DNA of 64,000 nucleotides from NCBI GenBank assembly GCA_016188965.1, contig JACPGT010000013.1:66-64065 (forward strand), given 5' to 3'. This DNA is from Candidatus Micrarchaeota archaeon. GTDB lineage: Archaea; Micrarchaeota; Micrarchaeia; Norongarragalinales; Norongarragalinaceae. Positions within the stretch are counted from its first letter, which is position 1. Each line of letters starts with the position of its first letter. The notes beneath the pieces are model-generated. The model saw only the letters and a list, made by a program, of their open reading frames with translations, was not told the origin of the DNA and did no database searches. The position numbers were made by a program, and so were the translations under genes. Shown here piece by piece: positions 2,721 through 61,725 of the stretch.

Positions 2721-2745
2721 GAGTATTCAACTCCGTAAATCAGCA

Positions 2746-4353: not shown

Positions 4354-4361
4354 TTTACCGC

Positions 4362-5330
4362 TTACGCCTCGCACGCTTTTTGAAGTGCTTTTGCAATGCG
4401 TTGCGGACTCGGAATATAATAGTCTTCGCGGCGGGCCAGCGGCATGGGTACGTCGTAGCCGCCCACGCGCAAGATGGGCCCTTTGAGGTCATACATGGCT
4501 TCTTGCGCCACGCAGGCGGCGATTTCGGCGCCGAATCCGCCGGTAATGGGGGCTTCGTGAGCGATGACCAAGCGGCCGGTCTTGCGAACGGATTGCAACA
4601 CCAAATCGCGGTCCCACGGCGAAATCGTGCGCAAATCGATGACTTCCACGGATTTGCCCGAGTCAGCCGCGGCCTGAAGCGAAGGCTTGGCCATGGAGCC
4701 CCACGATACCAGCGTCACATCCGAGCCTTCCTGTCGGATGACGGCCTCGCCCAGCGGGATGGCGTACAGTTCGTCGGGTACTTCCTGCTTGAACGCACGG
4801 TAATACTTGGACGGTTCCAGGAAAATAACGGGGTCCGGTTCGCGGATGCTCTGCACCAAAAGCCCTTTGGCGTCGTACGGCGTGGACGGGATGACGACTT
4901 TCAAACCGGCCACGTGGGCGTACAGCGCCTCCATGCTTTCCGAGTGGTGTTCCAAGGCCCGGATGCCGCCAGAACACGGCGCCCGAACCACCAAAGGACA
5001 CGTGAATTGTCCTTGCGAGCGCATGCGCAAGCGGGCGGCGTGGTTGAACAACTGGTTGATGGCCGGATAGATGAAGCCCGCGAATTGGATTTCCGCCACC
5101 GGGCGGAAGCCGTACGCCGCAAGACCGATTGCCGCGCCCACGATGGCGGACTCCGCCAGAGGCGTGTCGATGGCGCGATCTTCGCCGAACTTGGCATGCA
5201 AGCCGTCGGTTGCGCGGAAGACGCCGCCGTCCACGCCGACGTCCTCGCCCATGACCAAAACCATCGGGTCGCGCTCCATTTCCTGGCGCAAGGCTTCATT
5301 GATCGCGGCAATCAGGGTTTTTTCGCTCAT
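4362..5330 (-). CDS. 2-oxoacid (pyruvate) dehydrogenase E1 component, beta subunit
   Basis: 322 aa with a typical transketolase-like pyrimidine-binding and C-terminal domain sequence (GEDVG..GGVF, PLAE, RAPxxGG). Sits between E1-alpha and E2. Confidence 0.9.
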   Translation of the reverse strand: MSEKTLIAAINEALRQEMERDPMVLVMGEDVGVDGGVFRATDGLHAKFGEDRAIDTPLAESAIVGAAIGLAAYGFRPVAEIQFAGFIYPAINQLFNHAARLRMRSQGQFTCPLVVRAPCSGGIRALEHHSESMEALYAHVAGLKVVIPSTPYDAKGLLVQSIREPDPVIFLEPSKYYRAFKQEVPDELYAIPLGEAVIRQEGSDVTLVSWGSMAKPSLQAAADSGKSVEVIDLRTISPWDRDLVLQSVRKTGRLVIAHEAPITGGFGAEIAACVAQEAMYDLKGPILRVGGYDVPMPLARREDYYIPSPQRIAKALQKACEA

Positions 5331-5355
5331 AGGTCAGAATCGCCTTTTGGACTTT

Positions 5356-6420
5356 TCAATCGCCTTTCAAAAAGGCATCGCGCTGTTCCGCTAGGTTCCA
5401 CGGCTTCTGTTCGTACACGAAGTCAAACATGGTTTCAGGAGCCGCGGAGAATCCTTCCGCCGTCTTGACCGCGGCCTCGATGCGTTGAACCGCGGCCTGC
5501 TCGACCTGTTGCTTGTATTCCGGCGTGAAGATTTTGCGTGCGGAAAGGTAGGCCTCGAAGCGCAGCAGCGGGTCGCGTTTTTTCCAAGGCTCCACTTCGG
5601 CATCGGTGCGGTACTTCTTCGGGTCGTCCGCCGTCGTGTGCATGGTCATGCGGTAGGTGAGGCATTCGACCAGCGTGGGCCCTTCGCCCTTGAGCGCGCG
5701 CTCGCGGGCCTTCTTCACGGCGGCATACACGGCCAGCACGTCGTTGCCGTCCACCTGGATGCCCCACGCGCCGTACGCCAGCGCCTTCTGGGCGACCGTC
5801 TGGGAGGCCATCTGTTTGTTCAGCGGAACGGAAATGGCCCAGTGGTTGTTCTGGCACAGCAGGACCAAGGGAGTCTTGTGGACGGAGGAGAAATTGAACG
5901 CTTCGTGAAAATCGCCTTCGGACGTGGCGCCGTCCCCGAAGCACACCATGGCCAATTTGGCGTGCTTTTTCAGCTTCATGCCCCACGCCATGCCCGCCGC
6001 CATGGGCAAGTGGTTGCCGACGGTGATGGACAAAGGAAAAACGTTGACGCCTTGCGGCATGGCGAGGCCTTCTTCAAAACCCATCCAGTATTCGAAAAGC
6101 TGCTCGATGGGCGCGTTCCGGACCAAATAAGTCCCGTGGTCACGGTAGGTGGGAAACACGACGTCGTCCGGACCCAAGGCGTGCATGGCCCCCACCTGGG
6201 CGGCTTCCTGTCCCTCCATGGGCGCGTAGGTGTACATGCGGCCTTGCCGTTGCAAGGAAACGGCTTTGCGGTCGAAAAGGCGGCAAAGCACCATGTGTTC
6301 GTACATCGCCTTCAGTTGGGCGTCGGACAATTTCGGTTCCATTTTCTTGTCGGCGACGCCATTTTCGTCCAGCACCTGCCAGTACTCGACCTTGCCTTCA
6401 AATGCGGTTTTGCTGACCAT
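5356..6420 (-). CDS. 2-oxoacid (pyruvate) dehydrogenase E1 component, alpha subunit (TPP-binding)
   Basis: TPP motif GDGATSEGDFHEAFNF. The start ATG at 6420 overlaps the lipA stop by 1 nt (TGATG). The longer track ORF to 6507 runs into lipA. Confidence 0.9.
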   Translation of the reverse strand: MVSKTAFEGKVEYWQVLDENGVADKKMEPKLSDAQLKAMYEHMVLCRLFDRKAVSLQRQGRMYTYAPMEGQEAAQVGAMHALGPDDVVFPTYRDHGTYLVRNAPIEQLFEYWMGFEEGLAMPQGVNVFPLSITVGNHLPMAAGMAWGMKLKKHAKLAMVCFGDGATSEGDFHEAFNFSSVHKTPLVLLCQNNHWAISVPLNKQMASQTVAQKALAYGAWGIQVDGNDVLAVYAAVKKARERALKGEGPTLVECLTYRMTMHTTADDPKKYRTDAEVEPWKKRDPLLRFEAYLSARKIFTPEYKQQVEQAAVQRIEAAVKTAEGFSAAPETMFDFVYEQKPWNLAEQRDAFLKGD

Positions 6421-7331
6421 CAGGCTCGTTGCCTCCGTCGGATCAAATTCTGGATGAAGAATTCCCCGGCCCGGTATGAACTGCGCACGAACGGGCCGGA
6501 CGCGCAATAAAGAAAGCCCTTGGATTCCGCCATTTCACGGTAAGCGTCGAATCGCTCCGGGGTGACGTATTCATGTACCGGCAGATGAAGCCGGCTTGGC
6601 CGTAAGTATTGGCCGAACGTGACGACGTCCACATCAGCGGCGAGGAGGTCATCCAATGTTTGATTGATTTCGGCCTCGTTTTCGCCCAATCCGAGCATCA
6701 AGGACGATTTGGTATACGCCGCGCCCATTTTCTTGGCTTCGCGCAAAACGCCGAGCGACTGATCATAATTGGCACGCGGGTCCCGCACGCCCTTCTGCAG
6801 GCGGCGAGTTGTCTCCACGTTGTGGGCAAAGACGTCCGGTTTGGCCTTGACAATGGTGCGGACATGTTCCGCATTGCCGCGGAAATCCGGAGTCAACACC
6901 TCCACCAGCAAGTCCGGGTTGCGGGATTTGAGTTGCTGGATGCATTCCGCGAAATGGTTGGCGCCCTGATCCGGCAAATCATCTCGGTCCACCGACGTGA
7001 TGACGACGTAATCCAGGCCCCAACCCTGAACGGCTTCGGCGATTTTCTGCGGCTCCATAGGGTCCACGGGTTGGCCGTTGCGGGACGTCTTGACGGCACA
7101 GAAGCGACAACCCCGCGTACAGGTGTCGCCTAAGACCATGAACGTGGCCGTGCCGCCGGACCAGCACTCCGTCAGATTCGGGCACTGCGCCTCTTCACAG
7201 ACCGTCACCAGGCCCATCTCGTGCACGGTGCGCGTGACGCTTGCAAACGGTTCGCCATGACCGGGCTTGATGCGCAGCCAGGAGGGTTTTTCCAACGCGG
7301 AATCGGCCGATACGGTAAGCGGGATGGACAT
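6420..7331 (-). CDS. lipA: lipoyl synthase (radical SAM)
   Basis: N-terminal CxxxxCxxxxxC cluster ([12 protein letters not shown]) and radical-SAM CTRGCRFC motif. 303 aa. Confidence 0.93.
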
Positions 7332-7421
7332 GGAAAAAAGCCTTGGTAGTCTTCAACGCCCCCAATCAATAAAAACGAATGAAGATTCGACAATCAACGT
7401 CAAACGGTTGCGGGTGGAGAA

Positions 7422-8129
7422 TCATCGCATGCCGAGCCATTCGTCGGAGCGGTACTTTCCGGCGAACGTGTAGGCCAGCCCAAGCTGCTCTTCCGATACG
7501 CCCATGGGCTCCAAATTCATACCGTAGTGTTCCTCGAATCCGTCCGCCACGGCGCGTTCGACGTCTCCGAACGATTTACCGATTCCGATGACGCGTTGCT
7601 TGACGTCCGAAATGAGCTTGCCCTTCATCTTCTCGGAAGGCACCTTGAGCAAGTCGAACATGCGGTCCACGTCCACGCTCAAGAGGATGGTGCCGTGTTG
7701 CAGCAGGACGCCGCCACGGCGCGTCTGGGCGTTGCCCGAGAATTTCTTGCCGTTGACGATCAGGTCATTCAAAGGCGCGAATTGGCCGTCCACGCCGATT
7801 TTCTTCAGACCCAGCAAGATGCCAGCGCAGATGTCCCGGTACGAGTCCAAGATGTTGCCGCCGAACTGCCGCGTGACGAACGAATACGTCAATTCATCCG
7901 CATGGTACACTGCTCCTCCGCCGGTCACCCTCCGGACGACGTCGACACCATGGCGCTTGCAGGCATCCAAATCCACTTCCTCCTCCAAGCCCTGAAAATA
8001 GCCGATGGACACGGCATGCGGCTTCCAACCGTACAGCCGCAGGACGGGTTCCTGGCAGGTCCGCATCAAGGCCTCGTCGATGCCCATGTTGAGGTACGCG
8101 TCGGAAAAACCGGTTTTCAGAAGTTTCAT
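7422..8129 (-). CDS. lplA: lipoate-protein ligase A, catalytic (N-terminal) subunit
   Basis: 235 aa with a BPL/LplA catalytic-domain-like sequence (RRVTGGGAVYHD, KKFSGNAQ). Lacks the C-terminal accessory domain, which the upstream gene encodes. Confidence 0.85.
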   Translation of the reverse strand: MKLLKTGFSDAYLNMGIDEALMRTCQEPVLRLYGWKPHAVSIGYFQGLEEEVDLDACKRHGVDVVRRVTGGGAVYHADELTYSFVTRQFGGNILDSYRDICAGILLGLKKIGVDGQFAPLNDLIVNGKKFSGNAQTRRGGVLLQHGTILLSVDVDRMFDLLKVPSEKMKGKLISDVKQRVIGIGKSFGDVERAVADGFEEHYGMNLEPMGVSEEQLGLAYTFAGKYRSDEWLGMR

Positions 8130-10182: not shown

Positions 10183-10302
10183 GCGGCTGTGGTCCAGTGG
10201 CATGATACGACCTTCCCATAAGCCGGGATAAACGCCCCGAAAATACGCCTTGAACCGGCTTGGAATCAGGTTGAGATGCGGGTTCGATTCCCGCCAGCCG
10301 CA
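10183..10302 (+). tRNA. tRNA-Gly(CCC) with canonical 49-nt intron (10219..10267)
   Basis: Hand fold: acceptor GCGGCTG/CAGCCGC, T arm GCGGG-TTCGATT-CCCGC, anticodon stem CGACC/GGTTG, loop TTCCCAA after splicing, 4-nt variable loop, discriminator A. Perfect BHB: 4-bp central helix TTCC/GGAA, 3-nt bulges, 7-bp inner helix AAGCCGG/CCGGCTT. T-run follows. Confidence 0.85.
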
Positions 10303-33678: not shown

Positions 33679-34680
33679 ATGACGGCTAACTCCAAAGCGG
33701 CCCCAGAATCCGCATCGCAAACCTCCGCTGACGAAAAACACGACCATGAAGACCCCGAGCACGCCAGCCACGGCCACGCACATGCCGGCCACCACGGCGA
33801 CACGCTCAAGCATTACCTTGAAGCCGCCCGCGTCGCCGTTTCCGTCCGGTCCTTTGCCGAAGACTACGTCAAGCCCGGATTGAAGCTGTTGGACATCGCC
33901 GAGAAGATCGAAGCCGAAATCACCGAACAAGGCGCCGCCCCGGCGTTTCCCTGCAACCTGTCGCTCAACGAGGAAGCCGCGCATGACACTCCCCTGATCG
34001 GCGATGAACGCGTCCTGAAGGATTCCGACGTTTTGAAAGTCGACTTCGGCGTCCACGTGGAAGGCCACATCGTGGACCAGGCATTCACCGTCAACTTCGA
34101 CAACCAACACGCCAAGATGATCGAAGCGGCGCAACAGGCGCTGCAGGACGCGTTGAGCGTGATGAAAGCCGGAGCCAACGTGCGCGACGTAGGAGCGGCC
34201 ATCGAAGAAGCCATCGTCACGCGCGGCTTTCAGCCCGTCGAAAACCTCTGTGGCCACAGTTTGGCGCCGTACGTCGTGCACGCAGGCGTTTCCGTGCCGA
34301 ACGTGCCGCGCGGCGATTACGTCTTTCAGGAAGGCGACGTGTTCGCCGTAGAGCCGTTTTGCACCAACGGAGGCGGCAAGGTGACCGACGGACAGCTGGA
34401 TGAGATTTTTTCCATGGTGCAGGAAAAACCCGTCCGCCTGCCGCAGAGCCGCAAAGCCGTCGAATTCATCCTCGAGAAATACCAGACGCTTCCGTTCGCC
34501 CGCCGCAACCTACTGCCCGCGCTCGGCTCGCAAGCTTCGGTGGACCTGGCGGTGCGCGACTTGACGCGCCAAGGCATCCTGCACGACTACCCGGTGTTGG
34601 TGGAAATCAACAAGGGAATGGTGGCACAAGCAGAGACAACGGTCATCGTCGAAAAAGACGGAATCAAAGCACTCGTCTGA
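33679..34680 (+). CDS. map: methionine aminopeptidase, type 2 (archaeal), with His-rich N-terminal extension
   Basis: Pita-bread motifs (FPCNLSLNEEAAH, LKVDFGVHVEGH, GHSL, FAVEPF, AQAETTVIV). ATG at 33679; the track ORF extends upstream over the FKBP gene on the opposite strand. Confidence 0.88.
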   Translation: MTANSKAAPESASQTSADEKHDHEDPEHASHGHAHAGHHGDTLKHYLEAARVAVSVRSFAEDYVKPGLKLLDIAEKIEAEITEQGAAPAFPCNLSLNEEAAHDTPLIGDERVLKDSDVLKVDFGVHVEGHIVDQAFTVNFDNQHAKMIEAAQQALQDALSVMKAGANVRDVGAAIEEAIVTRGFQPVENLCGHSLAPYVVHAGVSVPNVPRGDYVFQEGDVFAVEPFCTNGGGKVTDGQLDEIFSMVQEKPVRLPQSRKAVEFILEKYQTLPFARRNLLPALGSQASVDLAVRDLTRQGILHDYPVLVEINKGMVAQAETTVIVEKDGIKALV

Positions 34681-34728
34681 ATTCGCGTTTTTCTTTTGGT
34701 AAAGCTTTTCTTCGAAAAGAAAAGGTTT

Positions 34729-34809
34729 GTCGACCTCAACAAGGGTATGGTAGCACAGGCGGAAACGACGGTCATCGTCGAAAAAGATTCCGTTAAAGCG
34801 CTCGTGTAA
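34729..34809 (+). repeat. second copy of the last 26 codons + stop of map (VDLNKGMVAQAETTVIVEKDSVKALV*)
   Basis: 81 nt, the same length as the genuine 3' end (34600..34680). By hand alignment it has 18 nt differences, 10 of them synonymous codon changes. Preceded by hairpin 34705..34724. Confidence 0.85.
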
Positions 34810-34912
34810 AACAAAAACCTTTCTTTTGGTAGAGCCAACAAAATCGCTTTGCGAATTTGAGGGATCTGCAAAGCTCTGCTTTGCATGTCTTTTCTTTGGA
34901 AAGAAAAGGTCT

Positions 34913-34993
34913 GTCGACCTCAACAAGGAAATGGTGGCACAAGCCGAAACCACCGTTATCATTGAAAAAGACGGCGTCAAAGCACGGGTTTGA
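34913..34993 (+). repeat. third copy of the last 26 codons + stop of map (VDLNKEMVAQAETTVIIEKDGVKARV*)
   Basis: 81 nt with 16 nt differences from the genuine end, 8 of them synonymous codon changes. Preceded by hairpin 34889..34908. Confidence 0.85.
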
Positions 34994-35173
34994 AACACTC
35001 CGCGTTGCTGTGGCATCGGCACAGGCAGTCGTCCGTAAAAAAAACCCATCCTGCGTCGCCCTTCGTTTCCGTCGGTCCTCTCCCGTCAGAGACCCGTCTT
35101 GCCTCCGTCGCGCGGTTTTCGGCAAAGCCAGCCGCCGGCACAACTTTTTATAGCCCCTTGACGTAAGGCCACC

Positions 35174-36313
35174 ATGGCCGCTGCAAAAAAGAAAGACGAA
35201 ATAAAGAAGCCCGAGAACACGGATGCCAAAACCAAACCCGACTCTGCAAAAGACGCCAAAGCGGAATCGGCCAAAACCGGTTTTTCGTTTTCCATCCCTC
35301 CGTTGGCGTTGGACGACGCGTTCAAGCTCAAGGCCCCGCTTTTGGTCCTGATGCTGCTTTTGTTCGCATTCGCCGGCTACTTGTTCCAGGCGGCCAGCCT
35401 GCACGTCACCGACTTGGTCGACGTCCAACGCATGCAGTTTTCCGCGGCCAAGCTGTACAGCCTTTCCTTCATCTTGTTCCTCGTCCTGTTCGCATTGGTG
35501 CTGGCGTTGTCCATGCACTTCGGCTACGGCCAGAATTGGCTGATGAGCCTGTTGGCATTGGCACCCACCGGGCTTGCCGCCATCGTGCTGGGCGTGATGT
35601 TCCCGCCGTACTTCGCCGCATTTCTGGCGTTCGCCCTCACCGCAAGTGCGGCTTCGTTCTTCGCTTCGCGGGCCGCCAAGATGAACCTTTCCGGCGCTTG
35701 GAACGTCGTCGGCCGCGCCCTGCTGGTATTGGCATTGTTGGCGTTCGTGTTGACGTTCATGAAAGTCAGCGCCAACTCGCAATACTATTCCGACCGCTTC
35801 CTCAACTCGGCCGTGGCAATGGCGCCTGACTTGGGAGGCCAAGTGGCCGACGCGGTCAAGAACGTCGAAGTGGACGAAGCCTTCCTGCGCGGCGCCATTT
35901 CGAAGGAAACCTTCGCAAGTTCTATTTCTACCGAAAGCGTCCAGTCCGCCATCGAGACCATTCCCGGACTTTCCTCGTTCAACGCCTCGGTGCGCCAGAA
36001 GTGGGCCGAAACGGTCAAAACCAGCCTGACGTCCGACGCGGCATACAACCAGTTCATCACGCTGGGCACGGCATCGCTCAAGAAGGCCCAGGCTAACCTC
36101 GCGGACCAATTCAAGGAAACCGCCACCAACGAGGCAGTCACCGCCGGAGCCTTAGCGCAAGTTAAAAAGTTGCCGGCGTTCAAGCAAGCGACGGACAACT
36201 TCGGCATCATCCTGGCGTTCATGGTGCTTAGCGTCGTAGGCGTAATGAACGTCGCCATCAAGATCCTCGCCACCATCCTGGCCTGGGGCCTCGGGAAAAT
36301 AGCGTTCGCGTAA
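35174..36313 (+). CDS. polytopic membrane protein with lysine-rich N-terminus (unknown function)
   Basis: 379 aa, at least 6 hydrophobic helices plus one roughly 110-aa loop/domain. TATA-like CTTTTTATAGCC about 25 nt upstream of the ATG. Confidence 0.55.
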   Translation: MAAAKKKDEIKKPENTDAKTKPDSAKDAKAESAKTGFSFSIPPLALDDAFKLKAPLLVLMLLLFAFAGYLFQAASLHVTDLVDVQRMQFSAAKLYSLSFILFLVLFALVLALSMHFGYGQNWLMSLLALAPTGLAAIVLGVMFPPYFAAFLAFALTASAASFFASRAAKMNLSGAWNVVGRALLVLALLAFVLTFMKVSANSQYYSDRFLNSAVAMAPDLGGQVADAVKNVEVDEAFLRGAISKETFASSISTESVQSAIETIPGLSSFNASVRQKWAETVKTSLTSDAAYNQFITLGTASLKKAQANLADQFKETATNEAVTAGALAQVKKLPAFKQATDNFGIILAFMVLSVVGVMNVAIKILATILAWGLGKIAFA

Positions 36314-38443: not shown

Positions 38444-38672
38444 TCGCGGTACCCGGCAGGGCGCGAAGACTTGGCGAAAAACCAAGTCCAGCGTCTTGCA
38501 AGTTCAACGGAACTTGTAAGGCCACACAATTTCGCTACGGCGAAATTGTGCTGACCAACAACGCAAAAACGTTGATGGGTCGGCGAATTCGCTCTGACGA
38601 GCACGTCAGCACACAGAACGCCAAAAGCAGAAGAAGGGTTTGCGCTCGTGCCCGGCAGGGCCGAGCGTTTTG
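38444..38672. ncRNA. hairpin-dense intergenic block, candidate structured RNA of unknown class
   Basis: At least 7 near-perfect stem-loops in about 230 nt, including CAAGTTC-AACG-GAACTTG, CACAATTTCGC-TACG-GCGAAATTGTG and CTGACG-AGCA-CGTCAG. Flanked by two matching GGCA-loop hairpins (38444..38466, 38643..38667), the second followed by TTTT. Confidence 0.4.
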
Positions 38673-38697: not shown

Positions 38698-38832
38698 CAA
38701 CGGTCGCCCCGGGGGACGCGTCCCCCTGGCACGGCCTGCGCCTCGCCCCCTCGAATTCGCGTGCAAATTCAAAGGGAGGGGTCAGGAGAACCGTGAAACT
38801 GGGGGAACCGTAGGTTCCCGCGGTTCCGGCGC
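38698..38832. mobile_element. 135-nt insert between the tRNA-Arg 3' end and its duplicate; ends are imperfect inverted hairpin repeats (M1 at 38702..38752, M2 at 38774..38832)
   Basis: Flanked by 22-nt direct repeats. The same repeat family sits at the tRNA-Ile locus in the opposite orientation. No ORF. Confidence 0.4.
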
Positions 38833-38836
38833 AAAA

Positions 38837-39005
38837 CGGGCCCGACGGGATTTGAACCCGCAACCTGCTGGTTTCTCCCACTAGGAAAGAAAGCCAATAA
38901 TGCCGTTCTCTCCCAAGATCGAAGCCTCGGCTTCCGAAGAGGCCTTAAAAGCTTGAAAGCCGGTATTCGGAACCAGCCGCTCTATCCTGGTTGAGCCACG
39001 GGCCC
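38837..39005 (-). tRNA. tRNA-Arg(CCG) with canonical-position 94-nt intron (38873..38966)
   Basis: Hand fold: acceptor GGGCCCG/CGGGCCC, D arm GCTC-AACCAGGATA-GAGC, anticodon stem GCTGG/CCAGC, loop TTCCGAA after splicing, variable AGGTT, T arm GCGGG-TTCAAAT-CCCGT, discriminator G. The BHB central helix is TTCC/GGAG. Confidence 0.85.
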
Positions 39006-46960: not shown

Positions 46961-48171
46961 TCAATCGACCGCCGCGATTCGAACAGCGGCGGCCTTCAGG
47001 TCTTGGGCCTTGTCCGTCTTTTCCCACGTGAAATCCGGATCATCCCGCCCGAAGTGCCCGTACGCCGCCGTCTTTCGGTAAATCGGGCGCTTAAGCCGAA
47101 GGTGCTCGATGATGGCCCGCGGCTTGAGGACAAAATGCTGTCGCACTAGTTTTTCCAACGCCGCATCCGGAATCAAGCCTGTGCCGAATGAGTTGACCAG
47201 CACCGAAACCGGCTCGGCCACGCCGATGCTGTACGCCAACTGCACCTCGACTTTCGAAGCCAACCCGGCCGCGACGAGGTTCTTGGCCACGTACCGCGCC
47301 ATGTACGCCGCCGAGCGGTCCACCTTGGACGGATCCTTCCCGCTGAAGGCGCCGCCGCCGTGCCGGCCGTAGCCGCCATAGGTGTCGACGATGATCTTGC
47401 GACCCGTCAGACCCGTGTCCGCCTCCGGTCCGCCCACAACGAAGATGCCGGTGGCGTTGATGAAGAATTTCGTTTGCGCATCCAGCCACGCGCCGCAGAC
47501 CGGCTTGATGACCTGCTCGATCACGTCGGAACGCAGTTTGTCCTGCGGCACGTCCGGATTGTGGTGCACGGCGATGACCACGGCATCCACCCGCTTCGGC
47601 TTGCCGTCGACGTATTCGACGGTGACCTGGCTCTTGCCGTCCGGCCGCACCCACGACAGGATGGCCTCCTTGCGGACCTGGGCCAAGCGAGCCGTCAGCT
47701 TGTGCGCCAGGCTAATGGGCAGCGGCATGAGTTCCGGCGTCTCGTCGCAGGCAAAACCGAACATCAGGCCCTGGTCGCCAGCGCCCTGCTCATGGTCCTG
47801 CGACTCGTCGACGCCAATCGCGATGTTCTGGCTCTGCTCATGGATGGCCGTCAGCACGGCACAATCCTTCGAATCCAGGCCGTACTCCGGATCGGTATAA
47901 CCGATTCCCTCCAAGGTCTTGCGCACGATGCCCTGGATGTCCGAATATGCTCTCGTCGTGACCTCGCCGGCGACCATGATGAGTCCCGTGCTGGTCAGCG
48001 TCTCGACCGCTACCCGCGATTGCGGATCCTGCCGCAGCAGGTCGTCGAGGATGGCATCGGATACCTGATCACAGATTGTAGACACGCACGGGACGGCAAA
48101 CGCCGTCACATGGTTTTGTCCGGGTGACCCTCGGTAACCGACTCCGACGTGAAAAACGATCGTTCTGCCAT
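46961..48171 (-). CDS. metK: S-adenosylmethionine synthetase, bacterial/eukaryal MetK type, interrupted by a 38-nt intervening sequence (exons 48171..48115 and 48076..46961)
   Basis: Exon 1 encodes [19 protein letters not shown], preceded by GGAGGT 8 nt upstream. Exon 2 encodes [11 protein letters not shown]...[12 protein letters not shown]...[16 protein letters not shown]. The two parts lie in different frames and a stop lies inside the insert. Confidence 0.85.
48077..48114 (-). other. 38-nt intervening sequence in metK, candidate BHB-type intron (junction ambiguous by +/-1 nt)
   Basis: Removal restores GHPDK-ICDQ exactly. Contains hairpin GACGGC-GTTT-GCCGTC extended by CATG/CGTG. A 4-bp helix GGAC/GTCT is flanked by 3-nt AAA and ACA segments at the junctions. 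Confidence 0.55.
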
Positions 48172-49625: not shown

Positions 49626-49834
49626 TGTAACCGGAACCGCGGGGAGGAACGCCTTCCCTCAGTTTCCGCATAAGTCTTCGGAGGACTTATGGGACCCGCA
49701 AATTCAGCAGAATTTGCACGGTCACGTTCTTCCGGAGCCCCACCCTAACGAATGCATTGCGAATCAGAAAAGGGAAGGAGGCGAGGCCCAGGGCGGGCCA
49801 GGAGGAAACCGTAGGTTTCCTCCGGGGCGACCAA
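49626..49834. mobile_element. about 210-nt hairpin-rich insert between the tRNA-Ile 3' end and its duplicate (M2 at 49631..49669, M1 on the opposite strand at 49778..49832)
   Basis: Same end motifs as the tRNA-Arg insert but inverted relative to the tRNA. Inner perfect hairpins CATAAGTC..GACTTATG and GCAAATTC-AGCA-GAATTTGC. No ORF. Confidence 0.4.
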
Positions 49835-49941
49835 TGGGCCCGGGGAGATTCGAACTCCCGACCGCTCGATGTCCAAAGGTTCAGGCATGTGCCGGAACGC
49901 ATTATCAGTCGAGTGCTCCAACCAGGCTAAGCTACGGGCCC
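49835..49941 (-). tRNA. tRNA-Ile(GAT) with canonical 32-nt intron (49871..49902)
   Basis: Hand fold: acceptor GGGCCCG/CGGGCCC, D arm GCTT..GAGC, anticodon stem CTCGA/TCGAG, loop CTGATAA after splicing, variable CGGTC, T arm GGGAG-TTCGAAT-CTCCC, discriminator A. Confidence 0.85.
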
Positions 49942-51222: not shown

Positions 51223-51411
51223 AGACGTACCCACCTCGATTGTGAAACCAATAGGGTGGAGACCCGCACTCAATATAAATATTGTTATTTTAATAACGAT
51301 ACCGTTAAAACAAAAACATTGTTATGGGCGAAGGGGGAATCGATAACAGGGGGGACCGGGAACCGGCCCACCACGAGCCATTTATAGTAGTTAGCACATA
51401 ACAGTACATAC

Positions 51412-51603
51412 ATGAAATGCAAGGAATTGGGCCGCATGGTCCAATGTCGCGGGTGCGCGAAAAACTTCCAATTCTTCCCGTCCGAGCAGACCGCCCGGGC
51501 CCAGTTGTCGCTTCACTTCCCGCCTTGCCCCGGTTGCGGCTTCGAATCCGTCGTCAAACTGACGCCGACGGAAGTCCGCGTCCTGCAGACGTACATCGGC
51601 TGA
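51412..51603 (+). CDS. small zinc-ribbon protein
   Basis: 63 aa with CRGC...CPGC. Confidence 0.45.
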   Translation: MKCKELGRMVQCRGCAKNFQFFPSEQTARAQLSLHFPPCPGCGFESVVKLTPTEVRVLQTYIG

Positions 51604-51789
51604 AACGAACGCCGCTTTTCCGATGACAATACTTCTTTTGATTAGCGTGCGCTCTTTGCTAAAAGAGAGTCCATCGAATGAACGGAGCTCGCCATCGTGG
51701 CCGGCAGGCCCGATGGCTTCGCTCTTCACCGGCCAGCACCCCTCCTTTCCTTTATAAATCCGGAAATTGCCAGTCGTGTTGCTAAAGCC

Positions 51790-51945
51790 GCCATAACGGC
51801 TTTCCTCTGAAGGAAGGAAGCACCCGGAAATTCTGTACTCGACAAACGCTCCGGCGTTTGTCGGGCCCCGCAAAGCCTGAAGCTTTGCGCGGGGGTGGGG
51901 TAGAGAATACGGAACCGCCGGGTGCTTTCTTCCCTTCTCCCCGTA
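51790..51945. ncRNA. candidate structured RNA: 16-bp closing helix (GGAAGGAAGCACCCGG / CCGGGTGCTTTCTTCC) enclosing two perfect hairpins
   Basis: Inner hairpins GACAAACGC-TCCG-GCGTTTGTC and CGCAAAGC-CTGA-GCTTTGCG. TTTATAAAT at 51751..51759 could be a plus-strand promoter. Class unknown. Confidence 0.35.
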
Positions 51946-51972
51946 TTTATGTTTCAAAATCCAAAGAAGTCC

Positions 51973-53100: not shown

Positions 53101-53124
53101 ACTTTCTTTTTCGAAAAAGAAAGT
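53101..53124. terminator. 24-nt perfect palindrome ACTTTCTTTTTCGAAAAAGAAAGT downstream of cutA
   Basis: Adjacent to a second 13-bp inverted repeat (53053..53065 / 53086..53098). Same T-rich palindrome type as 34705..34724 and 34889..34908. Confidence 0.45.
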
Positions 53125-53154: not shown

Positions 53155-53487
53155 TCATGTCACCGCCAGGAAATCCCGCAGCCATCTTTCGTATTCCGCG
53201 CCGACGTGCATGGCCGGGTAAAAACAGACGCAGGGCACGTCGTGGGAATGAAGCGACTTGACTTTCTTTTCAAAAGCCGGGATCTTGGCCCGAGTCGTCT
53301 TGCACAACAGGAGGACTTCATCCGCATGCTGGACTTCGCCTTGCCAGGAAAATACCGAATGCACGCCGGTCAGAATGTTGACGCAGGCGGCCAGTTTTTC
53401 TCTCACGAGGACGTCCGCGATTCTTTGGCCTTCGCCGGCATCCGCACAGATGACGTAGCCCAGCACGACTTCGTTGGCGTCCGCCAT
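53155..53487 (-). CDS. cutA: divalent-cation tolerance protein CutA
   Basis: KLAACVNI...SVFSWQGEV...E..LL.KT is the CutA1 signature. 110 aa. Confidence 0.85.
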   Translation of the reverse strand: MADANEVVLGYVICADAGEGQRIADVLVREKLAACVNILTGVHSVFSWQGEVQHADEVLLLCKTTRAKIPAFEKKVKSLHSHDVPCVCFYPAMHVGAEYERWLRDFLAVT

Positions 53488-57437: not shown

Positions 57438-60400
57438 TTATCCGATTTCCTCCAACTCCGGCTCATCGGACTTGCGCAGCTTGAACCAGTAAGCCAAGCC
57501 GCCCAACACCAACAAACCACCCAGGCCTGCGCCGACTTCCAGAAGCGAGTGCGAACCCAGTAGACCGGAAGCCGGGGAAACGGATGCCAAAGGCGCGCGC
57601 TGCAGTTGCAAAGCCAATTGTTCGGACGCGTAAAGGGCCGCGGCAAAACGACTTTGCGATTGTGCCTCGCGGATGGCATCCAGAAGCGGCGAGGCAGATG
57701 ATGACGCGCCGAATTGCTGTACGGCTTTTTCCGACGCATCCAACGCGGCCTTGCCGTCGGCCTCCAGCCGGTCCAAAAGCGATTCCAGCGCGGCTTCCTC
57801 CTGCACCGCCGCCGAGAAATCCGACTCCACGGACGCCAACGAAACCGGTTTTCCGTCTTCCGCCTTGCCGGCCGCGGATTGCAACTGCTTGACCGCGGCT
57901 TGAAGCGCATCGGCATGGGCCTTAGATTCGGAGTACAACAGCTGCCGGCTGCGCCAGCGCAACGCCGGCTCCGACACCGACCAAGCGGATTCAAAACGCG
58001 CCAAAGCGGGCCAGGACGCGGAACGAATGCGGGCCACCAAGTCCGTCATGGACCGGTTCGCCTCCGACTGCTCGGACTGCCACTGCTGCAAGCGCAGCTG
58101 GGCCGTGGCCAACTGCCCGCGGGCGCCGGAGAGGTCCGAGAGGAACAACGCGGCCTTGGCGTCGTGCAATGCGGACTCCACCTCTTGCGGACATCGGCTG
58201 CAGACCGCCTTGATTTTTTCCCCCAACGCGTTTTTCTGGGACCGGACGTACGCATCCAATTCCTTGACGGCTGCCGAGAGCACGGCGGAATCGGAGCGCC
58301 GCCATGCCGCGTCGGCCCGCTCAAGCAAGGGCCGGATGTCTTCATCGTCCGCCAAGGCGCGGTACTTCTCTAAGGGGTCGGACGCCGCGGGAGCATTCTG
58401 CAGCTGAAACAGAAGCCACGTGGCGTCAGAAAAGCGGCCTTCCGTCAAGGCACGCCGGACTTCCGGCAGGACGCCGGCCGAATCCGGCGCCAACGCAGGT
58501 AGGCGTTCCAGCCAGGCCGTCTGGTTGGCCAGCGTCTCGGGAACGCATGGTAGCTGAACAAGAAAGTCCCGCACTTCATATGCGTTCAGCGAGACGTTGG
58601 CCGAAAAGCGGTACAAACCGTCAGACAGTTTTGCTACTGAAAAATCCGGCGATTCGGGCGTGCAAGCCACCGGCTCATCCAACCGCCATTGGAACGCCAG
58701 GTCGAACGGAACCGTGCTCTGCAGGGAATACGACCACCCGGCTGCAACGGCCGTCTTGTCAAACCGCACCGGCTGCGGCACGTCGAATTCGAAATGAAAG
58801 ACGTTGACGCCTTTTTTCAGCGGCGAGAGCACCGCCTTGATCGAACCGTCGTCGAAGGCCGCCTCTCCGGACGAAATTCCGAGACGTTCCACCGGATAGT
58901 CCACGGCCCGCATCCAGAGCGCCGAACCGTCCACCTCGCTATCCAACGTCAGGACCCAAGCACGCCGCACGACGGAAGGCGACGCGTATCGGTTTTCTTC
59001 CTTGAGCGAACGCGTGCGGACTAACACGTCGTCGGCAACTCCTTCCGCGGCCAAGAGACCGCCGGCCGGCACGTATTCCAGCAGGAGGCCGTCCGGAAGC
59101 AGACGCACGCCGGTAGCAGAAGTAAGCCGGGCGGACGCCGGGATGAACAGCGGGCGTTTGAGCAAAAGGGGCCCGTCCAGTCCGAATTCCAAGTCGTTCT
59201 GGATGGAAAGCAAGAACGACCGGTTGGCAGGCGAATCGGCCACCACCGGCCCGCCGAACCAACGCAGCTCCAGCCGTCGCTCCAAGTACTCTTTCAACCA
59301 AGCGGCCTTGTGCGCATCCACGTCATGGCGGGCCGCTTCCAGCTTTTTTTCCAAAGCGGCCAGATGGCCCAGCTGGGCATCCAGCTGCAGCCGCCCGGAG
59401 ACGTCGAACGAATCAGCCGGCAAGGATACGAATGGGCTGAACGGCAGCAATTCCAGCCACAACGGTTCCAGACGCCCGAAACGCGCCGCAGCCTTGTCCA
59501 GGACGGATTGCCGCATGGATTCCAACGCCTCGAAAACAGAAGAGCCGGCTTCCGGGCCCAACGCGGCCCACTGCGCCAGTTGGCTCCGCTCGGCCGATAC
59601 GTCAAGGCCGTCCGAAGCGGCCGAGTCCAGCCAGGACTTCAACCTATCCGATTCCGACCGGCTCGATACCTCGGCGGGTCGACGCGCAGTTTCCTGCGCA
59701 GCGTTGAGGGCAGTCACGGCGTCTGCCAGTTGCAGGATGCGCTCGCCACGCGAGGCGGGCAGCGGCCGATCCGCCAGCTCCAACGCGGATTGACGGGCTA
59801 AAGCCGTGCGTACCACGTCCGCAGCGCCATCGGCATGCTCCTGCTGGACCGCGCGGCGCAGCGCATCCACTTGCCGCAACAGGTCGGACTCCAACCGACC
59901 CGTCTGCCGGTCGACGTCTCCCCAAGCGGTTGCCGCGGCTTCCGCCTGCTCACGGGCCTGATGGGCGTACGACAGGGCGCGTTCAGCAAAGCCTAACTGC
60001 CCCGCATTCCAGTGGTCCTCCGCCTTGCGGCGGTTTTCCTGCGCATCGGTCCAGGACTGACGGGCCTGCTGCAGCGTTTCGGGAAACGACTGCACCCACC
60101 CCGTCCGCGTATAGGACGACGGCCCCTGCAGGGAAAAAGCGTATTGTGGCACCAGCGAAATCTTCTGCTCGGCCAGGCGGGACTCGAGGCGCTGACCGTC
60201 CTGTAGCCGCTGGTCCACTTCGTCAGCCAGCCGCGAGAAGTCCGAATCCAGCTGCGAAAGCACCCGCGCAACGTCCCGGCACACGGACACCTGGCGTTCA
60301 AGCACTCCTTGCGGCCCCACCAATGCATCCATTCCAGCAACCATGCCTTCGTCGGAACGGGGTGCCGATTCGGCAAAACGCAGGGCATCGGCTACGCGGC

Positions 60401-60905
60401 CACCCAATCCCGGCCCGCTGGAGCGGTTCTCGATGGATTGCCGCTCCGCTTCCAATTCAGAATAAAGCCCTTTGGCCGGGCCATCCAGCCGTACGCCGGC
60501 GTGTTCCAAGTCCGCGATGCAGACATCCACGGCGGGCCAGTTCGAATCGACGGCGGAAACCGCCTGACGCAGCGCCTCGGCGGCCACGCGATGGCACGCC
60601 ACGGAGAGAAATCCATTCAACGCGGCGTTGGCGCCGCCCCAGAACAACGGCGAGTCCTGCCACTGCGCCATCTTTCTTGCCTGCGCCATACCCTTCACGG
60701 CATCCTGGCCCAGCCGGACGCCTTGCTCGAATCCGGCATCCTGGGCCAGTTTCCCGCCGAGCGCGACGGGCCGCAAGAAGGCCGTACACGGCTGGAGCGT
60801 CAAAGGAGGCTCGATCGGAGGAAAAAGGAACGCGTAGGCGGAGAACGACAAAGCCGAGGCCGACACGGAAAAGACGATGAGAAGGCAGATGATGGAAACG
60901 CGCAT
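57438..60905 (-). CDS. giant (1155 aa) secreted, C-terminally membrane-anchored, largely alpha-helical surface protein
   Basis: Start set at MRVSIICLLIVFSVSASALSFSAYA (signal peptide, ATG 60905). Long A/L/Q/R/E-rich helical stretches, a central beta-rich region of about 270 aa, and a C-terminal GAGLGGLLVLGGLAYWF helix + KLRK. Confidence 0.7.
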   Translation of the reverse strand: MRVSIICLLIVFSVSASALSFSAYAFLFPPIEPPLTLQPCTAFLRPVALGGKLAQDAGFEQGVRLGQDAVKGMAQARKMAQWQDSPLFWGGANAALNGFLSVACHRVAAEALRQAVSAVDSNWPAVDVCIADLEHAGVRLDGPAKGLYSELEAERQSIENRSSGPGLGGRVADALRFAESAPRSDEGMVAGMDALVGPQGVLERQVSVCRDVARVLSQLDSDFSRLADEVDQRLQDGQRLESRLAEQKISLVPQYAFSLQGPSSYTRTGWVQSFPETLQQARQSWTDAQENRRKAEDHWNAGQLGFAERALSYAHQAREQAEAAATAWGDVDRQTGRLESDLLRQVDALRRAVQQEHADGAADVVRTALARQSALELADRPLPASRGERILQLADAVTALNAAQETARRPAEVSSRSESDRLKSWLDSAASDGLDVSAERSQLAQWAALGPEAGSSVFEALESMRQSVLDKAAARFGRLEPLWLELLPFSPFVSLPADSFDVSGRLQLDAQLGHLAALEKKLEAARHDVDAHKAAWLKEYLERRLELRWFGGPVVADSPANRSFLLSIQNDLEFGLDGPLLLKRPLFIPASARLTSATGVRLLPDGLLLEYVPAGGLLAAEGVADDVLVRTRSLKEENRYASPSVVRRAWVLTLDSEVDGSALWMRAVDYPVERLGISSGEAAFDDGSIKAVLSPLKKGVNVFHFEFDVPQPVRFDKTAVAAGWSYSLQSTVPFDLAFQWRLDEPVACTPESPDFSVAKLSDGLYRFSANVSLNAYEVRDFLVQLPCVPETLANQTAWLERLPALAPDSAGVLPEVRRALTEGRFSDATWLLFQLQNAPAASDPLEKYRALADDEDIRPLLERADAAWRRSDSAVLSAAVKELDAYVRSQKNALGEKIKAVCSRCPQEVESALHDAKAALFLSDLSGARGQLATAQLRLQQWQSEQSEANRSMTDLVARIRSASWPALARFESAWSVSEPALRWRSRQLLYSESKAHADALQAAVKQLQSAAGKAEDGKPVSLASVESDFSAAVQEEAALESLLDRLEADGKAALDASEKAVQQFGASSSASPLLDAIREAQSQSRFAAALYASEQLALQLQRAPLASVSPASGLLGSHSLLEVGAGLGGLLVLGGLAYWFKLRKSDEPELEEIG

Positions 60906-61092
60906 GCCCTGCTTGCGGCCGAAGCATAGGCTTAAACATTGGGTAGAGTTTTTATCAACCCAACGCAGAAAAGGACGCAAACGGACGGACGTCTCCATCG
61001 GACGAAAAACGACGGGAGGCGGGAGCACCGTGATGCGGATGCTAAAAACATTAATAGGTGCCCGGGCCCATGACAAAGCCAGGGAACAGCGC

Positions 61093-61725
61093 ATGCGATT
61101 TTTCAAGCACGGCTCCGTTTTGGCCATCAGCCTACCGGAAAGCCTCCGGCAGAAACTCGGCATCACCGAAAACGACGAATACGACTTCGTCGAAACCCAG
61201 CCGGGTATTCTGACTCTGGTCCGCAAAGGCTCGTCCGTTTCCGCGGAAAAAGTCCGCCAAGCCGTTGCAACTCCCGCAACCGGCACGGCGAGCAAACCGG
61301 TATCCACGCCACACCCACCATTTACGCCGATGCCGTCCGTCACTTCGTCCCAAACCGCATCCAAACCGGCGGGTCCGTCATCCGTCTACGGCTCGACTGG
61401 AACCGCGTTGGACCGCCAAGGCTTCCTCGTGCTTTCCAGCGAAGACGAGGCGAAAGGCTTCTCGTTCCGATTCGAGGGCCTCATCAAATCCGGCGAAATC
61501 AAAGGCATCCGGGGATTTGACAAGAAATTCTACCTTGCCGCACGCGGGTATTCCGAAACCTACGCCGATCGCATTTTAGTCGGCCTCAAGGAACCCAAGA
61601 CGGCATCCGACCTATCCGCCCTGGTCAAGCAGCCCCTCGAAGGCGTGCTCACGTTGTTGTACCTGTTGAAAGAAGAAGGCGAAGTCATCGAGAAAAAACG
61701 CGGGCTGTTCGTCCGCGTCCTGTAG
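61093..61725 (+). CDS. AbrB/SpoVT-like N-terminal domain + C-terminal winged-helix protein
   Basis: MRFFKHGSVLAISLPESLRQKLGITENDEYDFVE..GILTLVRK (swapped-hairpin pattern). C-terminal LTLLYLLKEEGEVIEKKRGLF. Divergent from the giant protein gene. Confidence 0.55.
   Translation: MRFFKHGSVLAISLPESLRQKLGITENDEYDFVETQPGILTLVRKGSSVSAEKVRQAVATPATGTASKPVSTPHPPFTPMPSVTSSQTASKPAGPSSVYGSTGTALDRQGFLVLSSEDEAKGFSFRFEGLIKSGEIKGIRGFDKKFYLAARGYSETYADRILVGLKEPKTASDLSALVKQPLEGVLTLLYLLKEEGEVIEKKRGLFVRVL

Follow-up and report, generated by a model that had tools for sequence, protein, structure and literature searches.

Silent partial-gene cassettes recombine with an expression site in Neisseria (pilS/pilE), Borrelia (vls) and Mycoplasma (MgPar), and these systems diversify surface antigens. 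CIMEs next to ICEs in streptococci are non-autonomous, att-flanked elements that have accreted in tandem; they are recognisable ICE remnants and depend on a cognate integrase. DGRs, for their part, are known in DPANN archaea. The 3' end of map in a lineage of Candidatus Micrarchaeota, analysed here in a 64-kb stretch of DNA (the window), resembles each of these systems in part. With the attL/attR duplications of elements that target the 3' end of tRNA or protein-coding genes, cases of one site re-used in tandem included, it shares direct repeats of a gene's 3' end, an intact gene with displaced ends downstream, ends that differ mainly at silent sites and one specific target gene; unlike them, it has yielded no integrase, element genes or free attP, carries 48–161 nt of terminator-type hairpins between its repeats, has a layout inherited along the host tree and possesses no core identical in all copies. 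With the silent-cassette systems it shares promoter-less partial tandem copies beside an expressed gene, an open frame and conserved repeats between copies, and segment exchange may occur here too, as comparison of lineages suggests (mosaic copies, types swapping roles); the map cassettes differ in encoding a near-identical peptide of a housekeeping enzyme, with no diversification of the product. CIMEs offer a parallel in their serial att-like repeats at a gene 3' end with short non-coding DNA between, yet no ICE remnant or cognate integrase is detectable at the map array. The likeness to the template and variable repeats of DGRs, a repeat of a gene 3' end nearby, was discounted: no reverse transcriptase is present in the scanned window ORFs, the substitutions are mixed rather than adenine-specific, and the differences are silent rather than diversifying.

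The map gene (33679..34680, forward strand, as are the parts of the locus described below) encodes a type II methionyl aminopeptidase of 333 aa with a His-rich N-terminal extension. Its product contains PF00557, has 100% identity to the NCBI entry 'type II methionyl aminopeptidase [Candidatus Micrarchaeota archaeon]' and aligns with the Pyrococcus enzyme (P. furiosus MetAP, 1XGS) at E = 5e-75; E319, in the QAETT of the first copy, is the aligned counterpart of E280 in 1XGS, which we take to be a metal ligand. Three 81-nt copies of the gene end follow one another at 34600, 34729 and 34913, with coordinates and translations exactly as the earlier note had them. Copy 1 (34600..34680; VEINKGMVAQAETTVIVEKDGIKALV) comprises the working last 26 codons and a TGA stop, with a 3' half here called type 1. 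Copy 2 (34729..34809; VDLNKGMVAQAETTVIVEKDSVKALV) is silent and intact, ends in TAA and has a type 2 3' half, while copy 3 (34913..34993; VDLNKEMVAQAETTVIIEKDGVKARV) is silent, slightly decayed and closed by TGA. Beyond it, an alignment read directly gives a faint, degenerate trace of the T-run motif in the copy 3 flank (34994..35025; CGCGTT-GCTGTGGCA versus CGCGTTTTTCTTTTGGTA). A TATA-like box (TTTTTATAG, 35145..35153) and a conserved membrane-protein gene of 379 aa (35174..36313) bound the variable region on its far side. Synteny of the map-ds377 gene pair extends across Micrarchaeota, and in relatives small inserted genes also occur between map and the next gene. A second assembly of this organism (L001) carries the array letter for letter, and the arrays of two related lineages show no differences over two to six contigs and several samples, so that an assembly artefact is unlikely.

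Two spacers separate the copies. The short one, S (34681..34728), consists of a 9-nt flank, the T-run motif TTTCTTTTGGTAAAGC (34690-34705), a perfect hairpin (CTTTTCTT-CGAA-AAGAAAAG, 34705-34724) and GTTT; the long one, L (34810..34912), consists of a flank, the T-run motif (34820-34835), an insert of ~54 nt, a perfect hairpin (CTTTTCTT-TGGA-AAGAAAAG, 34889-34908) and GTCT. Both hairpins have 8-bp stems and 4-nt loops, and the motif TTTCTTTTGGTA(A/G)AGC reported after the first two copies recurs at 34690-34705 and 34820-34835. The insert holds further hairpins at ~34841-34858 (AAATCGC/GCGAATTT) and 34867-34885 (TGCAAAGC/GCTTTGCA), and spacer L folds at -32.2 kcal/mol (z = -3.05); the spacer of L013 (L-numbers denote related lineages, W that of the window, and c1, c2 and c3 the order of copies) reaches z = -7.1. 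Judged by their sequence, the spacers are conserved T-rich terminator-type hairpins, shared with unrelated loci, plus optional extra hairpins: the two-part module of T-run and hairpin also adjoins a tRNA gene in L094, and the window has a comparable T-rich palindrome behind another gene end (53101-53124).

The copies have diverged in the manner of coding sequence. Copies 2 and 3 differ from the real end at 18 and 16 of 81 nt, as the earlier note had counted, and from each other at 19; its synonymous changes, 10 and 8, become 11 (10 plus the stop codon) and 8 on recount. First, second and third codon positions account for 3, 2 and 13 of the differences between c1 and c2, for 3, 2 and 11 between c1 and c3, and for 2, 4 and 13 between c2 and c3, with synonymous against non-synonymous codons at 11/4, 8/6 and 11/4, respectively. 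The codon-position bias is thus present in every pairwise comparison (third-position excess over a neutral expectation of 1/3, P = 9e-4, 4e-3 and 2e-3 in the same order), and only 1-6 residues, mostly conservative, separate intact copies from the working end; with copies of only 81 nt, all type assignments and distances given here rest on small numbers. A profile built from the three copies recovers all three in the 64-kb window (E = 1e-23 to 1e-25) and no further map-end copy there that could bracket an element, all other matches being no better than E = 0.7. By alignment, homology among the copies apparently begins slightly 5' of 34600, at ~34596, and this left boundary is sharp and the same in all copies of the clade; there is no core stretch identical across all of them.

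Measured against functional ends, the intact silent copies are as well conserved in amino-acid sequence as functional ends are among themselves. W_c2, L005_c2 and L005_c3 lie at a mean non-synonymous distance of 0.081-0.091 from functional ends, compared with 0.085 among functional ends, and synonymous sites between copies are near saturation; the contention of the earlier note that the extra copies are not drifting neutrally is upheld by this comparison of the copies with orthologous ends, of the dN/dS kind that it had proposed. Other copies form a decay series, with mean pN to functional ends of 0.142 (W_c3), 0.174 (L013_c2) and 0.351 (L093_c2). Copy 3 of the window carries G313E and L332R, both absent from 78 functional ends, and its 3' half is closest to the working end of L002. 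Copy 2 has its nearest counterpart elsewhere: the working end of L173 has a flank matching its own (AACAAAAACC-TTTCTTTTGG) and differs from the copy by 1, 0 and 15 nt at the three codon positions. Each 3'-half type works as the map end in some related lineage: type 1 in W, L005, L002, L004 and L009 (silent as W_c3 and L013_c2), type 2 in L173 and L175 (silent as W_c2 and L005_c2) and type 3 in L013 (silent as L005_c3). Given this exchange of roles, it is reasonable to read every copy as a former functional end, as had been suggested. L005_c2 is a mosaic relative to its own c1, with 7/39 nt differing in the 5' half and 15/42 in the 3' half, and I310L (CTC), near the junction, occurs only in silent copies, four from three lineages, and in none of the 78 functional ends. 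Synonymous codon identity is lower in the last 26 codons (0.44-0.49) than in most gene-body windows (0.54-0.68), even between single-copy lineages. Within populations, neither recombinants nor copy-number variants were seen, the contigs of each lineage being identical. Dating or treeing of the 81-nt copies was abandoned, with synonymous sites near saturation and only the 3' halves yielding usable groups.

The same architecture is found in five lineages of one Micrarchaeota clade (W and four others), with one to three copies in a shared order: gene end, T-run motif, optional inner hairpins, T-rich hairpin and next gene end. The extra copies may be intact, decayed in part or in full, or cut short. 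Three copies are present in L005-L008, where spacer L precedes spacer S, the reverse of W, and L013/L016 have two, separated by a 161-nt spacer with four inner hairpins; in L093 the extra copy is decayed, and in L175 it is truncated to 10 codons, with 6/6 differing codons synonymous. By hand alignment the truncated copy fits no crown type and has V331 in common with its own lineage. An extra gene pair in L175 sits downstream of the silent copy rather than between copies, and the gap from map to the next gene is at most ~500 nt in every array-bearing lineage except this one. Seven spacers over six lineages measure 45, 48, 55, 57, 103, 106 and 161 nt, and the supposed element bodies of 48-161 nt are homologous across lineages; spacer L of W is ~91% identical by direct count to that of L005, where it occupies the opposite spacer position, and the neighbouring copies on either side are not conserved (21 and 24 differences). 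On a map-body tree, the five array lineages include the two basal branches (L175, L093) and three branches of the crown, with single-copy lineages in between, which is consistent with a single origin and repeated later contraction; array architecture tracks host phylogeny. An ancestral order 1-2-3-1' giving rise to all arrays by deletion alone was considered and set aside, resting as it does on three arrays. A similar duplication of the map end was made independently in a distant lineage, L097, while no other gene with such an end duplication turned up in ~1.2 Mb of related DNA, nor did any among ~3000 further long ORF stretches; together these point to a site preference for which plain recombination does not account.

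Our tentative preference, held at somewhat less than even confidence, is for an old tandem array of gene end plus terminator that unequal or homologous recombination has reshuffled, inside lineages and from one to another, and in which every copy is intermittently the functional end. On this view the last ~27 map codons recur in tandem in variable number, as silent copies still able to code, with terminator-type hairpin modules between them. It would have originated when the gene end and its terminator were duplicated in an ancestor of the clade, and would later have grown, shrunk and been rearranged through unequal and homologous recombination, both inside genomes and among co-occurring related lineages. 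The nucleotide-conserved terminator modules and the conserved coding sequence may have served as anchors, and the outcome would be a change in which copy is joined to map. The peptide may be kept either by copies having recently been the working end or by a damaged copy, once recombined in, meaning a dead essential gene; copies that drop out of exchange would decay. Several considerations weigh against such a recombining array. Exchange at only 75-85% identity is expected to be rare, three intact silent copies with essentially no excess amino-acid change, at near-saturated synonymous divergence from the copies beside them, demand much of indirect selection, and the ~54-nt insert is ~91% identical between two deeply diverged lineages. 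A related possibility, which we regard as doubtful, is that the copies are spare 3' ends of an essential housekeeping gene, silent cassettes that would have arisen at least twice in Micrarchaeota and be kept by selection, retaining the peptide as their silent sites diverge, either as templates for recombination and repair or through the lethality of a damaged copy that is recombined in.

The alternatives differ in what they make of the conserved peptide, the spacers and the site itself. The earlier note had proposed map as a present or past attachment site, at which integrative elements carrying their own map 3' end integrated serially and displaced the resident ends downstream, their bodies since lost; elements with naturally tiny bodies would fit as well. 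We consider this unlikely, although the copies do diverge like separately evolved functional ends, the duplication is map-specific among ~3000 ORF stretches and has arisen twice independently, all clade copies begin at the same sharp left boundary, and a silent copy resembles an attR hybrid in joining a junction-specific 5' part to a once-functional 3' part. Direct repeats of the target gene 3' end number three in W and two or three in L005, L013, L093, L175 and L097, and there is archaeal precedent both for integration into 3'-distal regions of protein genes (14/68 elements in Thaumarchaeota) and for tandem re-use of sites (PMC6563490). Against this, a Pfam scan of ~45 window ORFs (>= ~145 aa) revealed no integrase or transposase, no recombinase was found by Pfam in the small genes inserted at the locus in relatives (PHROGs likewise returned nothing), and the gene tables of related contigs list none adjoining map. 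The comparison with related genomes that had been proposed as a check revealed no element between map and a displaced end in any of 16 clade lineages, with map-to-next-gene synteny intact across the clade. Nor did the proposed search for an element carrying a map 3' end or an attP-like copy succeed: IMG/VR gave 0 matches, whether to either of two map-end peptide patterns or to the hairpin-junction combination, BLAST against phage and plasmid sets gave no map-end match, and viral contigs matched the 16-mer T-run motif only by chance and never together with a map end, negatives that are weak in that these collections hold few if any Micrarchaeota elements. Spacers of just 45-161 nt would require near-total loss of the body every time, their ends are a generic terminator hairpin present elsewhere in these genomes, the highly conserved L spacers sit between unrelated copies, and the copies lack a common identical core. 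There is no sign of an integrated element, present or past.

If the peptide were instead selected in place, through expression of the downstream copies as small ORFs or by recoding, its conservation on a par with working ends would follow directly. Candidate ORFs start at a TTG inside the TTTCTT-TTG-GTA motif and run to 37 aa (34696-34809) and 55 aa (34826-34993); all four intact copies share the reading frame of this TTG, which lies 33 or 87 nt upstream of them, but the frame does not match in L013 (partly decayed copy) or L175 (truncated copy) and is cut by a stop before the decayed copy of L093. Between W and L005, copies in the same position are 16-18 nt apart, nearly always through third-position changes (3, 0 and 15; 2, 3 and 11), and have common 3' termini (GCGCTCGTGTAA in c2, GGTTTGA in c3). 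A gene caller reports a 32-aa ORF of this kind in L008, and an exhaustive protein-database search with the 55-aa ORF gave a single match, a 32-aa ORF that is probably the one called in L005, where a word-indexed search gave none. Expression is nonetheless improbable: the spacer-encoded part of the ORFs is not coding-like, its changes between W and L005 being by count nearly all amino-acid-altering and very few synonymous, the TTG lies within a terminator-like T-run with no TATA-like box or ribosome-binding site seen upstream, and the intact-looking copies of L097 and L175 have no in-frame start codon. Silent copies, moreover, carry G313E, L332R and I310L, never present in the 78 functional ends, and decay in series, and no function is evident for the 26-residue C-terminal strand of MetAP on its own. 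Bulge-helix-bulge splicing to copy 2 or 3, or ribosomal bypass of the stop and hairpin, would account at once for the coding constraint on the copies, the nucleotide constraint on the structured spacers and the sharp left boundary, and this genome does have tRNA genes with long introns, while the array spacers, that of L013 among them, are strongly structured. Such alternative C-termini are highly improbable all the same, since the peptides are nearly identical, leaving isoforms without obvious purpose, and decayed copies occur; a scan in which relaxed motifs were covered non-exhaustively returned bulge-helix-bulge motifs with cut sites exactly one repeat period apart that were chance matches or local hairpins, none common to the arrays. 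Plain neutral tandem duplication, or strain variants stacked in assembly, could draw on the tandem direct repeats and a possible junction microhomology (GGTTT..GT), yet is scarcely credible and already contradicted by the codon-position bias in all pairwise comparisons, by pN at the level of functional ends despite near-saturated pS, by identical arrays in independent assemblies and samples, and by homologous arrays in several lineages.

Should the copies stay coding-competent without expression, selection would reach silent DNA purely via recombination with an essential gene, something that to our knowledge has rarely been documented, and never for a housekeeping enzyme. The spare-cassette reading, if true, would supply a housekeeping counterpart of the silent cassettes of antigen genes, with selection acting on untranscribed DNA through recombination. 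Were the copies element scars, map would be a new attachment site and a first handle on the mobile elements of Micrarchaeota, of which, as far as we know, next to nothing is known. On both readings the locus is a marker of recombination and gene flow between ultra-small archaea that occur together, and its 81-nt units, present in several lineages and as a series from intact to decayed, offer a compact natural test case in which 'once functional' can be separated from 'selected in place'.

Minor observations concern the spacers and their surroundings. Rfam has no family at gathering score in the window and only chance-level matches (E up to 10) over 34400-35300, and a kinship of the spacers with the long tRNA introns of this genome was dismissed, no similarity being apparent by eye. 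The inner GCAAAGC hairpins were likewise considered as a dispersed repeat family and rejected, their other occurrences in the window being confined to a structured region at ~51780-51900. That region may itself be an unrecognised RNA gene.

The map gene, which encodes a type II methionyl aminopeptidase (MetAP), lies at 33679-34680 on the forward strand, and an NCBI Micrarchaeota protein matches its product at 100% identity. Its working last 26 codons and stop (c1, 34600-34680) recur at 34729-34809 (c2) and 34913-34993 (c3); on re-reading the window sequence, the positions and translations that the earlier note had claimed for these ends matched exactly, and the two perfect hairpins and common T-run motif were present as it gave them. 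A search with a profile of the three copies found no further map end in the window. Pairwise, the copies differ at 18, 16 and 19 nt; third codon positions account for 13, 11 and 13 of these, an excess over the neutral expectation of one third (P 9e-4 to 4e-3). Within the repeated peptide, E319 aligns with E280 of the P. furiosus MetAP, a metal ligand in that enzyme's structure. At its N terminus the window's enzyme carries a histidine- and acid-rich extension of ~40 residues (…HDHEDPEHASHGHAHAGHHG…, 33679-33810) that is missing in 295-aa archaeal enzymes; close relatives have one of variable length.

Downstream of every copy except the last come, in order, a few variable bases, the motif TTTCTTTTGGTA(A/G)AGC, in some spacers a block of inner hairpins, then the hairpin CTTTTCTT-loop-AAGAAAAG and GTYT, which leads into the next copy. 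Spacer S (short) measures 48 nt, and spacer L (long, 103 nt) consists of S plus a ~54-nt insert with two small hairpins. Spacers fold well (z of -3.05 for the window's long spacer and -7.1 for that of the relative L013), and in folding the left T-run is able to pair with the right A-run, closing the entire spacer. The two-part module of T-run and hairpin also adjoins a tRNA gene in the relative L094, and a perfect T-rich palindrome resembling the array hairpins (ACTTTCTTTTT-CG-AAAAAGAAAGT, 53101-53124) stands ~30 nt 3' of the stop of a minus-strand gene (53155-53487); because of these two occurrences, the module is probably a generic, bidirectional terminator of the group rather than a mobile-element end.

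For comparison, ~190 loci encoding related MetAPs (numbered with the prefix L) were fetched, sampling 16 lineages of the clade. Three intact copies are found in L005-L008, L014 and L015, whose MetAP has 85% amino-acid identity to the window's, with L as the first spacer and S as the second, the reverse of the window. L013 and L016 have two copies, the second partly decayed, across a 161-nt spacer with four inner hairpins; L093 (76%) has a spacer of the S type and an extra copy that is thoroughly decayed, and L175 (73%) the same module followed by a copy truncated to 10 codons, in which all six differing codons are synonymous. A single end is found in L002, L004, L009, L173, L174 and Micrarchaeota further removed. 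In a tree built from the map body, arrays occur on both basal branches of one clade and on three crown branches, five lineages in all, with single-copy lineages interleaved, a distribution consistent with one origin and repeated contraction thereafter. L097 (58%) has duplicated its map end independently: the last 16 codons and stop recur 111 nt downstream (L097:3496-3657), preceded by a GC-rich hairpin of ~57 nt unlike that of the clade, with no difference in the first 24 nt and only synonymous changes in the five sense codons that differ. Arrays are identical across independent assemblies and samples, and of the 3021 long ORF stretches scanned (~1.2 Mb from the fetched loci), map alone has a downstream copy of its own end; the window's array belongs to a small, map-specific family.

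By Nei-Gojobori counts on these 81-nt units, whose silent sites are near saturation, functional map ends differ among themselves by a mean pN of 0.085 at pS ~0.78, and the pS of all six silent copies is 0.64-0.83. Mean pN to functional ends is 0.081 and 0.086 for the second and third copies of L005 and 0.091 for the window's c2, making these three indistinguishable from working ends, and the values for the window's c3 (0.142), L013 copy 2 (0.174) and L093 copy 2 (0.351) form a decay series. The window's c3 has the states G313E and L332R, found in none of 78 distinct functional ends. As a drifting duplicate cannot approach silent saturation without equal amino-acid decay, each intact silent copy either has only recently ceased to be a working end or is under selection in place; the earlier inference that the copies evolved as functional ends is supported.

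The 3' halves of map ends group at orthologue-level distance (5-8 of 42 nt, mostly 9-15 between groups). Type 1 is working in the window, L005, L002, L004 and L009 and silent in the window's c3 and L013 copy 2; type 2 (flank AACAAAAACC-TTTCTTTTGG) is working in L173 and L175 and silent in c2 of both the window and L005; type 3 is working in L013 and silent in c3 of L005. The second copy of L005 is like its own c1 in the 5' half and unlike it in the 3' half, and a silent-copy-specific Leu codon beside the junction is common to four silent copies from three lineages. Synonymous codon identity is 0.44-0.49 over the last 26 codons versus 0.54-0.68 in most gene-body windows, a deficit that holds even between single-copy sisters (L002 and L004: 0.54 at the end versus 0.79, P = 0.007). 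Several array-clade lineages co-occur in the same groundwater samples. Types, mosaics and low end identity are consistent with ends having been exchanged repeatedly between copies and between lineages. The explanation we favour, tentatively, is a long-lived tandem array of gene end plus terminator, whose units would persist and recombine, alternating between working and silent positions, with decay setting in for a copy once rotation ceases.

The earlier note had instead suggested that map may be or have been an attachment site, the extra ends being relics of integrative elements since lost. The idea is reasonable given that archaeal elements are known to target the 3'-distal portions of protein genes, with tandem re-use of a site (PMC6563490), and the restriction to one gene and the two separate origins of the duplication argue for some site preference. 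However, domain scans of ~45 window ORFs (those of at least ~145 aa) and of the small genes inserted at the locus in relatives turned up neither a recombinase nor a transposase; clade-wide, the same membrane-protein gene follows map within ~500 nt, plus those small inserts. Within the clade no element separates map from a displaced end, although, contig flanks being 4-6 kb, an element large enough to place its displaced end far away could escape detection in more distant lineages. Scans of IMG/VR for the map-end peptide pattern and for hairpin plus junction gave zero matches, as did phage and plasmid collections. Long spacers of the window and L005 are ~91% identical whereas the adjoining copies show 21 and 24 differences in 81 nt, so spacer and copy have not recently travelled together. 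The three-copy observation stands, but integration is not supported as its mechanism and appears unlikely. Translation of the downstream copies as small ORFs appears less likely still: the T-run motif contains a TTG that shares the frame of all four intact copies, lying 33 or 87 nt ahead of them, yet changes in the spacer-encoded part (counted on window and L005 sequences) mostly alter amino acids, with few silent, no TATA-like box or ribosome-binding site was seen 5' of these ORFs, and a start codon is lacking for the intact-looking copies of L097 and L175. Splice motifs spaced by one repeat period were looked for and not found.

The gap between map and the membrane-protein gene acquires small genes in relatives (L175:1335-2309, L094:4951-5502, L004:7096-8148, L296:5077-5802 and L105:5014-6417; no recombinase among them). 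These comprise wHTH-nucleotidyltransferase genes with or without HEPN (toxin-antitoxin-like), methyltransferase-like genes and an ATP-grasp-like gene; the wHTH-nucleotidyltransferase inserts of L175 and L094 have a promoter palindrome in common.

Elsewhere in the window, three tRNA genes with introns of up to ~97 nt (10183-10302, plus strand; 38837-39005 and 49835-49941, minus strand) were detected by the Rfam tRNA model and all missed by ARAGORN. Near-identical hairpins lie 3' of both minus-strand genes (GGGAACC-GTA-GGTTCCC and GGAGGAAACC-GTA-GGTTTCCTCC; 38803-38819 and 49801-49823), a second recurrent type distinct from the T-rich one. Two adjoining perfect hairpins, one with an 11-bp stem (CACAATTTCGC-TACG-GCGAAATTGTG), occupy 38499-38550, within the long interval that separates an exonuclease-like gene from a tRNA gene. 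A hairpin-rich, apparently non-coding stretch at 51650-51960 (minus strand) has motifs reminiscent of RNase P RNA (AGAGGAAAGCC, ACAGAA) and stems equal to those of inner spacer hairpins (CGCAAAGC/GCTTTGCG, GACAAACGC/GCGTTTGTC); it has no Rfam match even at E up to 1, and the ORF called across it (51391-51957) has low third-position G+C and no Pfam match.

Among protein-coding genes, a 1307-aa ORF (57438-61364, minus strand) of coding-like composition has no Pfam match at E up to 0.001. The S-adenosylmethionine synthetase (46961-48109, minus strand) matches the three MetK domains PF00438, PF02772 and PF02773, which mark the bacterial/eukaryotic rather than the archaeal-type enzyme. A full 2-oxoacid dehydrogenase set (1302-8129; E3 and E2, then E1 past a ~1-kb gap outside the scan), accompanied by lipoyl synthase and lipoate-protein ligase, represents a sizeable piece of metabolism for a small-genome archaeon.
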